Positions 19,281 through 26,516 of a DNA stretch of 31,509 nucleotides are shown one piece after another. Below the pieces are notes generated by a model that saw nothing but the letters and a program-made list of their open reading frames with translations, had not been told where the DNA came from and did not search any database. Numbering within the stretch: the stretch's first letter is position 1; each line of letters begins with the position of its first letter. Location of the stretch: the NCBI GenBank assembly GCA_018623895.1, contig JAAZUY010000001.1, positions 1-31,509 of the forward strand. Reading direction: 5' to 3'. A program made the translations under genes and the position numbers. The stretch is from a bacterium (GTDB lineage: Bacteria > Bacillota_I > Bacilli_A > Acholeplasmatales > Acholeplasmataceae).

Positions 19281-19309
19281 TTGTAATCGCTTTCATTTAT
19301 TGATATAAT
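19281..19309 (+). promoter_or_regulatory. fic sigmaA promoter with a cre-like operator (19281-19296) over the -35
   Basis: TTGTAA-N17-TATAAT with an extended TG. TTGTAATCGCTTTCAT fits the cre consensus TGWAANCGNTNWCA. Confidence 0.7.
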
Positions 19310-19332: not shown

Positions 19333-20064
19333 ATGAAGAAAGATATTTTAGAAATGCAAAAAGTTCATCTTGATAATATAATTAATGAAAGAAAAGATGG
19401 AATTGGTAAAGAAATTGAAGATAAATTTATATTGAATTATACATATGATGCTATTAGTTTAGAAGGCAATAATAGAATTCCATTTGAAGATGTGAAACGA
19501 CTTATAAATAAAAAGATATTTTTGGATTACACGGAGAGAGAGCAAAAAGAAGTTTTAAATCATGTTAACGCATTTTTAAAATTAAAAAGTTTTATAGATC
19601 AAGAGCTTGATTTATCAGAAGAAATGATCAAAGACTTACACGAAATAATAGTTGAAGGAATTTTTCAGGGTGGTTTCTATAGGAATGTAAATATACAATT
19701 AATGGGTTCAATGCATCAACCAACCGATCATGCTAAAGTTTATGATAGAATGCATAAATTATTTACAGAAATAAAAAGCAAAAATTTTAATTCAAAAATT
19801 GAAAAAGCAGTCTATGCTCATGCAGGAATATCTAAAATTCATCCTTTTTTAGACGCAAATGGAAGAGTCGCAAGAATGGTTTTGAATTTTTATCTTATGA
19901 AAGAGGGATATTTACCGATATCAATACCATTCAAAGATAAAATTAAATATATTGAATTGCTTGAAATTTTTAAAATTGAAAAGAATTTAGTTCCTTTAAC
20001 ACAATATTTTAAGGATTTATTAATAAATCGCTATGAAGAAACAATAAATTCATTAGAAGTTTAA
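19333..20064 (+). CDS. Fic-domain protein, class II (N-terminal inhibitory helix)
   Basis: Active-site loop HPFLDANGRVAR (19840-19875) and N-terminal YDAISLEGN. Confidence 0.9.
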   Translation: MKKDILEMQKVHLDNIINERKDGIGKEIEDKFILNYTYDAISLEGNNRIPFEDVKRLINKKIFLDYTEREQKEVLNHVNAFLKLKSFIDQELDLSEEMIKDLHEIIVEGIFQGGFYRNVNIQLMGSMHQPTDHAKVYDRMHKLFTEIKSKNFNSKIEKAVYAHAGISKIHPFLDANGRVARMVLNFYLMKEGYLPISIPFKDKIKYIELLEIFKIEKNLVPLTQYFKDLLINRYEETINSLEV

Positions 20065-22640: not shown

Positions 22641-22674
22641 TGCTATAATATTTTTATAATGAAAACGATTACAT
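22641..22674 (+). promoter_or_regulatory. Extended -10 promoter (22641-22649) and cre-like operator (22659-22674) of the EF-G paralog
   Basis: TG-C-TATAAT followed by ATGAAAACGATTACAT, which fits the cre consensus. Its reverse complement is 14/16 identical to the fic operator. Confidence 0.7.
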
Positions 22675-22686
22675 TGGAGGGTTATA

Positions 22687-24747
22687 ATGAAAGAATATAC
22701 AACTAAAAACATAAGAAATATAGCTATATTAGGACATCAATCATCTGGAAAAACAACACTTGCTGAATCAATTTTATATGTTTCAGGAGCTATTGATAAT
22801 CAAGGTGATGTAGAAGCAAAAAATACTGTTTCAGATTTTTTAAAAGAAGAACAGAATAAACAAAGTAGCTTATCTATGTCATTGCTTCCGTCAGAATTTC
22901 ACAATCATAAATTTAATTTTTTAGATATTCCTGGCTCTGAAGAGTTTGTAGGAGATCTTTATCAAGCTCTTTCAGTTGTAAAAGGAGCAATTATAGTCGT
23001 TGATGCAACTAAGGGAATTGAGGTTGGAACTGAAAGAGTATGGCAAGAAATAAGAAAGAGACATATTCCGGCATTAATTTTTGTAAATAAGATGGATAAA
23101 GAAAATGTAAAATTTGAAAATTTATTAGAAGAAATTCGTACAAAACTTGGAAAAAAAGCTGTTCCATTTTGTTGGCCAATAGGTAAAAATGAAAACTTCG
23201 AGGGCTTTGTAAATATAGTTGAAATGAAAGCTAAAATTTTTGATGGTAAAAAAAGTCAGGATGTTGAAATATGGGAAGAAAAAAAACCTAAGATTGAAGA
23301 ACTAAGAAATATGATGTTAGAAAGTGTGGCGGAGACGTCTGAAGAGTTATTAGAAAAATATTTTTCTGATGAAATATTAACTGAAAAAGAGATAAAAGAT
23401 GGTTTACATAAAGGAGTTGTTGAAGGAGAGTTAACGCCGGTTATAGTTGGCTGTGCTAAAAAATCAATAGGTACCGAAACACTTATCGACATGTTGTTTG
23501 ATTATTTACCTGCACCAAATGAACTTGGACCTGTCTCTTCTAAAAATAAAGAAGGAAAAATAATTAAAGTCACAACTAATGAAGAAAATAAATTTCATGC
23601 TTATGTTTTTAAAACTACTGTAGATCCATTTTTAGGAACAATTAACTATATTAAAATTAAATCTGGAACTTTATCATCTGGAGATGAATTCATTATTTCG
23701 AATAGTGGTGAAGTAAGGAAAGCAACAAATTTATATACACTGAGAGGAAAGCAACAAATTAACATAGGAAAATTTTATGCTGGAGATATTTGTACACTAT
23801 CAAAAATAGATGGTTTAAGTACTGGACTAACAATTAGTGATCCAAAAGAACCTTTGATTTTTGATGCTGTTAAAATTCCAAATCCAATATTATATATTGC
23901 AGTACACCCAAAAAATAAAAACGATGAAGATAAAATATCTGGGGCATTAAGTAGATTAAATCTTGAAGATCCAACATTTCAAATTCAAAGAAACAAGGAA
24001 ACTAAACAATTATTGCTTGGTGGACAAGGGATGACTCATCTAAATTATATTATAGAGAGAATGAAAACCATGTTCAAGGTAGATGTTGATGTTGAATCTC
24101 AAAAAATAGTTTATAGAGAGACAATAAAAAGTAAAGTTGAGGCTGAAGGGAAACATAAAAAACAATCTGGTGGTGCTGGACAGTTTGGACATGTATGGAT
24201 TAGATTTGAACCAAGCAAAGAAAAATTCGTTTTTTCTGAAGAAGTATTTGGAGGATCAGTACCTAGAAATTATTTTCCAGCAGTTGAAAAAGGTTTGATT
24301 GAGACCTTCGAAAATGGTCCTTTAGCAGGATTTCCAGTGATCAATGTTAAAGCAACACTCTATGACGGATCATATCATTCAGTTGATTCTAATGAACTGT
24401 CATTTAAATTGGCTGCAGGATTAGCTTTCAAAAATGCATTTAAGGATGCCAATCCTACAATATTAGAACCAATTGTAAAATTAGAGGTAAAAATTAAAGA
24501 AAAATATGTTGGAGATATTATGGGTGATATGAATAAAAGAAGAGGCAAAGTCATTGGAATGGACCCAAAAAACGATGGCACTCAAGTAATAGATTGTGAA
24601 GTTCCAGAATCTGAAATTGTTTCATATGCTATTGATTTAAAAGCGATGACTCAGGGTTCAGGACAATTCTCTAGAGAATTTATTAGATATGATGAAGTTC
24701 CTAATCATTTAATTAATAAGATTGTGGAGAAATACAAGGATCAATAA
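22687..24747 (+). CDS. Elongation factor G paralog (EF-G2-like) with a degenerate G domain, 686 aa
   Basis: EF-G architecture (NKMD, KKQSGGAGQFG, DGSYHSVDS, ILEP, domain V), but G1 is GHQSSGKTT, switch I is KQSSL and switch II is DIPGSEEF. Not located in an rpsL-rpsG-fusA-tuf operon. Confidence 0.92.
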   Translation: MKEYTTKNIRNIAILGHQSSGKTTLAESILYVSGAIDNQGDVEAKNTVSDFLKEEQNKQSSLSMSLLPSEFHNHKFNFLDIPGSEEFVGDLYQALSVVKGAIIVVDATKGIEVGTERVWQEIRKRHIPALIFVNKMDKENVKFENLLEEIRTKLGKKAVPFCWPIGKNENFEGFVNIVEMKAKIFDGKKSQDVEIWEEKKPKIEELRNMMLESVAETSEELLEKYFSDEILTEKEIKDGLHKGVVEGELTPVIVGCAKKSIGTETLIDMLFDYLPAPNELGPVSSKNKEGKIIKVTTNEENKFHAYVFKTTVDPFLGTINYIKIKSGTLSSGDEFIISNSGEVRKATNLYTLRGKQQINIGKFYAGDICTLSKIDGLSTGLTISDPKEPLIFDAVKIPNPILYIAVHPKNKNDEDKISGALSRLNLEDPTFQIQRNKETKQLLLGGQGMTHLNYIIERMKTMFKVDVDVESQKIVYRETIKSKVEAEGKHKKQSGGAGQFGHVWIRFEPSKEKFVFSEEVFGGSVPRNYFPAVEKGLIETFENGPLAGFPVINVKATLYDGSYHSVDSNELSFKLAAGLAFKNAFKDANPTILEPIVKLEVKIKEKYVGDIMGDMNKRRGKVIGMDPKNDGTQVIDCEVPESEIVSYAIDLKAMTQGSGQFSREFIRYDEVPNHLINKIVEKYKDQ

Positions 24748-24780
24748 AATAAAAGATGCTAATTAGCATCTTTTATTTTA
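24745..24780. terminator. Bidirectional terminator, perfect 36-bp palindrome
   Basis: TAAAATAAAAGATGCTAA|TTAGCATCTTTTATTTTA. It contains both convergent stop codons. Confidence 0.85.
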
Positions 24781-26516
24781 TCAATAAGATTAATAACTCT
24801 TGTTATGTTTTCTTTAATAATTCTAAATGAGTTATTCCAAAAAGTTTCAGAGTTTAAATCAATTCCGATTTTTTTTGAAACTTCTTCAATTGAATCTTTA
24901 GGAGTGAATTGTAAAAAAATCTCATAATCACTGGTAAATTGAGTTGGATTTTCTTTATATTTTGTAAATAAGGCTTTTCCAAACAATAGTCCAAATGCAT
25001 ATGGGAAGTTATAAAAATTATATTCAGCATCATAGTAATGAGATTTAATTAACCACATATAGGGATGCAAAACATCCTTATCAAGACCATCTAAGTAAGC
25101 TTTTTTTTGAGATTCCTTCATCCATAAATTAATGTCTTCAACATTTAACGGCTTATTAGCCTCATCGAATAATTTTGATTCAAAGTAATATCTAGATAAT
25201 ATATCTATAATTACTTGAGTATTATCCTGTAGTTCATTTTCTAATATATTTAATAACTCATTATCATTTTTAACATTATTAATTAAAAACTCATTGACTA
25301 TAGATTCACAAAAAATCGAAGCAGTTTCTGCTAGAGGCATTGGATAATCCCAATTCAGAGGTGTATTCCTGCTTATCATTTCTCCATGAAATCCATGACC
25401 TAGCTCATGTGCTAACGTTAAAACATCAGAAAGAGTACCTGTGAAATTCACTAAAATCCTTGATTGATTAATTTGTGGCAAATTATCACAAAATGCTCCT
25501 CCAACTTTTCCTTTTCTTGGAGAAATATCTATCCACTTATTTTCAAATGCTTTTTTTGCAAAATCACCTAGATTATTACTAAAGTTATAAAATGCACTTA
25601 GAATAATTTTTTTTGCTTCTTCAAATGAATATTTTTTTGTTACTTCTCCAATAGGAGCAAAAAGATCATAAAATGGGAGACCATTAGAATGACCAAGATA
25701 ATTTGATTTCTTTTTAAGATAGATTGAAAAATAATTTCTATGATTTTCAATTGAATTGATAAGTAGTTCCAAAGTTTTACTTGACATTCTGTTGTTTATT
25801 AGTGTAGGTTCAAAGATAGTTTCATAACCCCTCAATGAATTCACCATGTTAACTTGACGCTTGATATTTGTTAATGCTAAAGCTACATATTCCTCAACAG
25901 ATTTTAACGCTTTAATTTCAGCTTCGAAGGCGTCTTTTCTAATTTTTTGATCTTTATTGTAAGCAAGATTTCTTATTTCAGATAAAGTTAATTTTTTATT
26001 TTGAAAATCAATTTCAATATTTGATGTCACGATCTCTTGAAGTTGCTCCCAAGAATCACTTGCCAATAAAGTCATTTTTTCTAATAACTCCTCTAAATCC
26101 TCGCTTAATAAAAATTTGCTTTCAAGTTGAACTTTATTTAAATGATATAAATTTTCAAAAATTACTTTACTTTTATGTTTCATTTTATCAAGATCAATAT
26201 CTGATATGTGTCTTTTAAATTTGACGTAATCTTTGGTGAGAGAAATCAAAAGCTCCTCAACTTTTAGATTAAACGTCATGGGTGTTTTATCATTGACATT
26301 AGTACAAAATCTTAAATTCGCATAAGAGTATAAATTGTTTGTGATTCTCTCAATTTTTTCAGATATAAATACATATTTTTCAAGTAAATCTATGTCACTT
26401 AAAATATACATTTCGGAAACTAATTTTTTGAATTCTTTAACAAAATTTTCCAGTTTAGCGAAGTCTTTTAAATACGAGTCATCAAATTCTTTGTAAAGAT
26501 CATCTAAATTCCACAC
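24759..26516 (-). CDS. pepF: Oligoendopeptidase F (M3B family)
   Basis: WNLDDLY N-terminus, GKVGGAFC, HELGH zinc motif, LAETASIFCE and FYNFPYAFG. GTG 26516 follows GGGGGAG. The ORF track start is 26543. Confidence 0.92.
   Translation of the reverse strand: MWNLDDLYKEFDDSYLKDFAKLENFVKEFKKLVSEMYILSDIDLLEKYVFISEKIERITNNLYSYANLRFCTNVNDKTPMTFNLKVEELLISLTKDYVKFKRHISDIDLDKMKHKSKVIFENLYHLNKVQLESKFLLSEDLEELLEKMTLLASDSWEQLQEIVTSNIEIDFQNKKLTLSEIRNLAYNKDQKIRKDAFEAEIKALKSVEEYVALALTNIKRQVNMVNSLRGYETIFEPTLINNRMSSKTLELLINSIENHRNYFSIYLKKKSNYLGHSNGLPFYDLFAPIGEVTKKYSFEEAKKIILSAFYNFSNNLGDFAKKAFENKWIDISPRKGKVGGAFCDNLPQINQSRILVNFTGTLSDVLTLAHELGHGFHGEMISRNTPLNWDYPMPLAETASIFCESIVNEFLINNVKNDNELLNILENELQDNTQVIIDILSRYYFESKLFDEANKPLNVEDINLWMKESQKKAYLDGLDKDVLHPYMWLIKSHYYDAEYNFYNFPYAFGLLFGKALFTKYKENPTQFTSDYEIFLQFTPKDSIEEVSKKIGIDLNSETFWNNSFRIIKENITRVINLIDKIKDAN

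Follow-up and report, generated by a model that had tools for sequence, protein, structure and literature searches.

Can a translation factor of the elongation factor G (EF-G) type that has lost the catalytic histidine of its GTPase domain still act as a translocase, and where in the EF-G family does such a protein belong? The question is raised by a coding sequence at positions 22687 to 24747 (+ strand; 686 aa, domains I to V) of the 31,509-nucleotide stretch of DNA analyzed here (the window), which is contig C17 of a 614-kb genome bin that is 68% complete. The closest database proteins to this ORF are labelled Acholeplasmataceae. A preliminary description of the window had presented the product as an EF-G paralog with Ser in place of the catalytic His, and every motif that it listed lies where it had been placed in the ORF. 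An AlphaFold model of the protein (mean pLDDT, 89.2) gave a TM score of 0.91 in a fold search against both ribosome-bound EF-G and the EF-G2 of Bacteroides thetaiotaomicron (PDB 8DMF); the model and the fold search confirm the architecture only and are silent on activity.

The P-loop, GHQSSGKTTL (22732–22761, +; residue 16 on), carries the EF-G II markers Gly16 and Leu25 and has Ser19 in place of the P-loop Asp. Switch I, EQNKQSSL (22849–22872, +; residue 55 on), takes the xxxSx form of EF-G II, with Lys58 for Arg, Ser60 for the gate Ile and Ser61 for the Mg-binding Thr. In G3/switch II, DIPGSEEF (22924–22947, +; residue 80 on), Ser84 (codon TCT, nt 22936–22938) occupies the place of the catalytic His, and a gap-free alignment sets it opposite the His of DTPGHVDF in solved EF-Gs, which bears out the substitution first proposed. 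It is not a sequencing error, since congeners have DVPGSDEF. Both gate isoleucine sites (Ile18/Ile60), the P-loop Asp and the catalytic His have all been replaced. The guanine-recognition motif G4, NKMD (23086–23097, +; residue 134 on), is intact, G5 reads GCAK (23449–23460, +; residue 255 on), and the predicted nucleotide-binding elements (P-loop GKT, Ser61, DxxG and NKMD) are retained. Three of these residues are rare within the clade: 52 of 53 close orthologs have Gly for Ser19, the same number have Ser for Cys256 (GSAx), and 49 of 53 have Asp for Glu85, so the switch II motif of the clade is Ser-Asp-Glu.

Domain IV contains loop I, KQSGGAGQFG (24160–24189, +; residue 492 on), with the KHKK basic patch of EF-G II just before it, and the tip GSYHSVDS (24367–24390, +; residue 561 on) with the conserved His564. 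Both loops are present, as first described, but loop I departs from the canonical form and is of the EF-G II type (KHKKQSGGAGQF versus KFVRQSGGRGQY), with Ala497 in 53 of 53 close orthologs where 25 of 25 canonical EF-Gs have Arg. In domain III, the GMGELH of canonical EF-G has become GQGMTH (24028–24039), and its Glu, found in 25 of 25 EF-G I sequences, is missing from every one of the 53 close orthologs; this change is a candidate for a looser coupling of domains I and III and for hydrolysis-free release. Sites linked to fusidic acid resistance in canonical EF-G are also altered in the clade (here and, for example, in rows L014, L018, L022 and L030): the Thr of DTPG is replaced by Ile, Val or Leu (22927–22929 in the window), and 18 of 53 close orthologs have Leu for Phe87 (22945–22947). 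T84A and F88L are listed in the PDB as fusidic-acid-resistant EF-G mutants, and fusidic acid may leave the paralog unaffected.

Judged by sequence, this is an ordinary EF-G II (EF-G2) gene carried by an Acholeplasmataceae genome bin. Among NCBIfam models it matches NF009381 (PRK12740.1-5) best, at 881.5 bits against a cut-off of 583, while the score for the Bacteroidota EF-G2 model NF058620 (602.6 bits) lies under its cut-off of 1000. Margus, Remm and Tenson (2011; PMC3150367) defined diagnostic positions for EF-G II, of which the protein has 12 of 13. All six type I positions agree (G16, L25, S61, T310, G354 and K373; Gly16, Leu25, Ser61, Thr291, Gly333 and Lys352 in 1WDT numbering). Six of the seven type II positions, which are tendencies of 84 to 96% in the family, also agree (V252, L266, K491, K492, E534 and G624, for V250, L264, K471, K472, E513 and G603, with L264 and G603 re-mapped by motif); the exception is D216, which is Ser218. 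The motif pattern of the subfamily is likewise present (GHQSSGKT for GhxxxGKT, DIPG for DxPG, NKMD for NKxD and KQSSL for xxxSx in place of RGITI), with Cys for Ser in G5 (GCAK for gSAx). In a tree of EF-G sequences that left out the spdEFG1/2 and Tet rows, an EF-G II branch stood apart from EF-G I (SH-aLRT, 100) and held the protein among its Acholeplasmataceae orthologs, so that the placement as an EF-G2 paralog stands. The hallmarks of canonical EF-G (AHIDAGKT, RGITI, DTPGH and location in the str operon) are absent, and identity to the canonical EF-G of relatives is 35 to 37%. With other EF-G II proteins it shares the xxxSx switch I, relaxed domains I to III and a conserved domain IV, a location outside the str operon and, in relatives, an accompanying EF-G I. 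It differs in the Ser at type II Asp216 and in having a small residue at the His site, where members from Clostridia, Fusobacterium, Haloplasmataceae, Thermus and Mycobacterium have Tyr. The 2011 list of EF-G II sub-groups, as consulted here, has no Mollicute group, and a partial literature search found nothing joining Acholeplasma with EF-G2.

As the GTPase motifs are non-canonical, the gene might be a decaying duplicate or a tetracycline protection protein. The latter idea finds some encouragement in the PDB, where the chain of entry 7UVP bears the name of the tetracycline resistance protein TetQ; however, 8DMF, titled B. thetaiotaomicron EF-G2, has an identical sequence, and the TetQ name is likely a mislabel. 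Both Tet models scored far below their cut-offs (tet_protect, 323.6 bits versus 775; the second, 214 versus 1100), in line with the earlier statement that this is not a TetM/TetO protein. The frame is intact in 50 of 60 relatives, and dN/dS between close pairs is about 0.03 to 0.08, domain I included. Decay or tetracycline protection is thus largely refuted and we regard it as extremely improbable. Mean identities over ten matched genomes were lower for the paralog than for canonical EF-G in the G core (67% versus 86%), domain II (49% versus 78%), domain III (65% versus 85%) and domain V (69% versus 79%), whereas they were nearly equal in domain IV (77.8% versus 80.1%). Relaxed domains I to III with a conserved domain IV are the described EF-G II pattern. 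The pattern of substitution indicates that the gene is functional and under purifying selection, and that the decoding-site tip matters most.

Could this gene instead encode the only EF-G of the organism, a canonical translocase whose active site happens to be unusual? The preliminary description had named a lone EF-G as grounds against its own reading. Taken literally, that is what the assembly contains: a search of the 68%-complete bin for canonical fusA found none and turned up only IF2 (contig C77), and the protein just passes the TIGR00484 cut-off (662.3 versus 659.4). However, rpsL, rpsG and tuf are missing as well, congeners have the order rpsL-rpsG-fusA-tuf-TatD-like gene, and it is in the last third of the TatD-like gene that contig C75 of the bin starts; hence, the str operon has been lost in an assembly gap. 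Among 60 relatives, the paralog was found in 50, a canonical-type match in 56 and both in 46, and the four with the paralog alone are 81 to 90% complete. A second, canonical-type EF-G is present in eight of nine congeners and in all three single-contig relatives that hold the paralog. In the relatives examined it lies within an rpsL-rpsG-fusA-tuf operon, and 25 of 25 canonical copies have AHIDAGKT, RGITI and DTPGHVDF. We would therefore be greatly surprised if this were the sole EF-G. The paralog itself was not found in 10 of the 60 relatives, including three small, near-complete genomes of the family (0.7 to 0.9 Mb). Throughout two large families of the class there is a single EF-G. The paralog is thus dispensable in some lineages.

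The Ser-acid-acid motif had been regarded as an unrecognized variant, a view that does not hold. The top solved match for the first 138 residues is 7UVP/8DMF, the B. thetaiotaomicron EF-G2, with DCPGSDDF, and Ser at the catalytic His site is already known from that structure. Within the Mollicute-type clade, moreover, site 84 varies freely: the 93 non-Tyr sequences have Ser (42), Asn (31), Thr (6), Ala (6), Gly (4) or Ile (4), and Ser is encoded by both of its codon families. Tyr occupies the site in 37 sequences of Clostridia, Haloplasmataceae and related types, and His was found in 0 of 130 EF-G II sequences. Six residue types and both Ser codon families indicate a position that has been released from constraint, mostly to small residues, rather than re-tooled. 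The non-Tyr rows form a clade (support, 100) that lies nested among rows with Tyr. Forcing this clade together with Bacteroidota was 89 log units worse in a quick tree of 38 chosen rows (p-AU, 0.004), and acquisition of Ser by transfer from Bacteroidota was rejected on this test. All Bacteroidota rows but L312 were retrieved with a Ser-containing pattern and do not measure the frequency of Ser there. The nesting and the AU test make it most likely that the Ser states of the two groups arose separately, and they point to a separate loss of an ancestral Tyr in the Mollicute-type clade.

Several other sequences merit comment. L078, titled Bacteroidaceae (G198), comes from a 1.3-Mb bin and clusters with Mollicute sequences; it was left out as a Bacteroidota reference. 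Together with L099, titled delta proteobacterium (G201), it has an EF-G II gene that groups with Mollicute and Clostridia rows, and both bins are likely mislabelled or mixed. A second sub-type within the clade (L056, L059, L135, L138 and L139; Izemoplasmatales-type and related) has RYIKQSGGSGYY/FY in domain IV loop I and GKYH for GSYH, and two strongly divergent orthologs (L137 and L075) have the tip GKEHPVDSH with AYKK in loop I. Plasmid-labelled records of Clostridioides difficile contain an EF-G-like match of 43% identity over a shorter span (∼636 codons).

The region upstream of the gene suggests when it is expressed. An extended −10 promoter element, TGCTATAAT (22641–22649, +), may be recognized from its sequence and its recurrence in orthologs; a sigma-70 consensus scan, which found promoter-like sites at chance level only, missed it. 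Between this element and the Shine-Dalgarno sequence GGAGG (22676–22680, +) lies a predicted cre-type (CcpA) operator, TGAAAACGATTACA (22660–22673). A match with at most one mismatch precedes 49 of 53 orthologs of at least 60% identity, in 48 of these at 23 to 36 nt before the start, although these rows are kin and some are near-identical. Upstream of canonical fusA there was no such match in 25 copies, all of which had three or four mismatches. The operator is patchier in distant Mollicute-type rows and mostly missing before Tyr-type genes. Strict matches in the 614-kb bin number two, one here and one at 19282; as 0 to 3 would be expected (mean, 0.6), the count alone is weak, and it is position and conservation that carry the case. 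Genes for a CcpA-like protein, HPr kinase and two HPr-family proteins are present in the bin. The CcpA-like protein falls below the TIGR01481 cut-off (280 versus 442); among solved structures, however, it matches CcpA best (2e-69), with other LacI proteins a long way behind (3e-26). CcpA is present in nearly all relatives. CcpA represses from a site just behind the promoter. Conservation of the operator at that place in most close relatives (48 of 53) implies induction on carbon shortage, and we infer both CcpA binding and such induction for the EF-G2 gene. A partial literature search found nothing showing CcpA control of fusA2. At the other end, a perfect 19-bp inverted repeat at the stop codon (24744–24781) is a likely terminator, shared with a convergent M3 peptidase gene, and the EF-G2 gene is probably transcribed alone.

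Other features of the window were observed in passing. The second strict cre match, TGTAATCGCTTTCA (19282–19295), precedes a Fic/DOC-domain gene (19333–20064) that lies 3 kb upstream of the EF-G2 gene and adjoins tRNA-Gly and tRNA-Thr genes. A perfect 14-bp inverted repeat (22603–22616/22640–22653), the right arm of which spans the extended −10, yields a mirror TGCTATAAT on the minus strand, directed toward the 3′ end of proS. At 325 to 2635, a gene for a 169-aa, ECF-like sigma-70 region 2 protein is followed by two ORFs (329 and 260 aa) for which a Pfam search at 1e-6 gave no match; this is possibly a sigma/anti-sigma unit.

What, then, might the protein do? On balance, we favor a slow, hydrolysis-poor translocase induced by starvation, a reading that has somewhat better than even support. 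With sugar in ample supply, a complex of CcpA and phosphorylated HPr would occupy the cre site behind the promoter and keep the gene off; when carbon runs short, the repressor would depart and EF-G2 would accumulate. The protein would then bind GTP and enter ribosomes in the pre-translocation state, and there the basic, conserved tip of its domain IV would drive movement of tRNA and mRNA. The outcome would be slow elongation at a lower GTP cost, alongside the essential canonical EF-G. The preliminary description had already proposed a GTP-binding, hydrolysis-poor translocase, and with the nucleotide pocket intact and the hydrolysis residues lost this is still the best reading. With the catalytic His gone, and the P-loop Asp and hydrophobic gate as well, GTP hydrolysis would be poor. 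The H91A mutant of Escherichia coli EF-G offers a precedent: it binds but does not hydrolyze GTP, translocates up to 30-fold more slowly, is slow to leave and forms a very stable ribosome complex (PMC4718068). As this mutant is stuck on the ribosome, EF-G2 would need some other release route. In Mycobacterium smegmatis EF-G1, an H88Y change nearly abolishes GTPase activity.

Two other functions deserve weight, both of them compatible with a role in starvation. The first is a translocase that still hydrolyzes GTP by a His-independent route, so that capacity is added and no GTP is saved. Thermus thermophilus EF-G2 is reported to retain ribosome-dependent GTPase and translocation activity with Tyr for His. 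In the Mollicute-type clade, Lys or Arg is kept at the switch I Arg site (91 of 93), Ser or Thr at residue 61 (93 of 93) and His at residue 17 (90 of 93); domain I is strongly purified by selection, and there is no Bacteroidota insert. Yet the six unrelated small residues and both Ser codon families at site 84 argue that the site has no catalytic role left, neither the gate nor the P-loop Asp survives, and two of the three EF-G II proteins studied lack ribosome-dependent GTPase activity. We consider this alternative unlikely, at perhaps one chance in several. We hold a similarly low opinion of the second, in which the protein is a hibernation or braking factor that, bound to GTP and not hydrolyzing it, holds ribosomes and slows translation in starvation. 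M. smegmatis EF-G2 traps post-translocation ribosomes and fails to complement fusA(ts), the hydrolysis-dead H91A complex is very stable, and cre control would suit a brake equally well. Against a brake are the highly conserved, near-canonical domain IV loops, the G4 and G5 motifs, which are kept here and lost in the mycobacterial protein, and higher scores with Bacteroides and Thermus EF-G2 than with that of M. smegmatis.

If the protein is a slow, hydrolysis-poor translocase, a wider proposal follows, which we put forward tentatively and would not expect to be borne out in full: that Acholeplasmatales and their kin may have evolved a GTP-sparing starvation translocase independently of Bacteroidota. 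The switch II outcome would be the same (Tyr to a small residue plus acids), as would the carbon-shortage trigger, here through the unrelated CcpA; with no Bacteroidota insert in domain IV, exit from the ribosome would take another route. Convergence of this kind, if true, would provide a minimal system from nature for studying multi-turnover translocation that proceeds with no hydrolysis of GTP. In itself, the protein is ordinary, as EF-G II is widespread and Ser at the His site was already present in a solved structure; the conserved cre box predicts when it is made.

The three EF-G II proteins studied so far disagree, being an active GTPase in Thermus, a slow GTP-free translocase in Bacteroides and a trap in Mycobacterium. 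T. thermophilus EF-G2 (1WDT/2DY1) shares with the Acholeplasmataceae protein the subfamily, the fold (TM, 0.84), Gly16 and Leu25 and the lack of a domain IV insert but differs in its Tyr at the His site (DAPGYGDF), in the Thr kept in switch I and in its reported GTPase activity. M. smegmatis EF-G2 (9K0Z/9K10) also belongs to the subfamily, has lost the His, the P-loop Asp and the gate and is linked to stress; it differs in having Tyr at the His site and degenerate G4 and G5 motifs and in trapping ribosomes. B. thetaiotaomicron EF-G2 (BT2167, fusA2; 8DMF/7UVP; NF058620) has the same Ser followed by two acids (DCPGSDDF versus DIPGSEEF) and the same loop I (HKKQSGGAGQF), and carbon-linked control, which has been shown in Bacteroides, is predicted here. 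In Bacteroides, fusA2 is activated about 238-fold on carbon limitation via BT4338/Cur (PMC10294740, PMC6989115), whereas repression by CcpA is predicted for the Acholeplasmataceae gene. Bacteroides EF-G2 is reported to be without GTPase activity and to translocate slowly with no hydrolysis of GTP, and it has been described as allowing GTP-independent translation under carbon limitation. The two proteins are only about 35% identical and fall in separate clades (p-AU, 0.004); Bacteroidota EF-G2 has NQLD, YGYSV in switch I and an insert of about 26 to 30 residues in domain IV, whereas the Acholeplasmataceae protein has NKMD, a basic Lys at the switch I Arg site and no insert. According to Han et al. 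in 2023, the insert is reportedly needed for translation, for ribosome release and for the lack of GTPase activity. Its absence means that the Bacteroides result does not carry over automatically, which is our main reason for caution. For the same reason, a clade that has the Bacteroides-type switch II without the insert, and that occurs in cultured Acholeplasmataceae, can separate the effect of the lost His from that of the insert.
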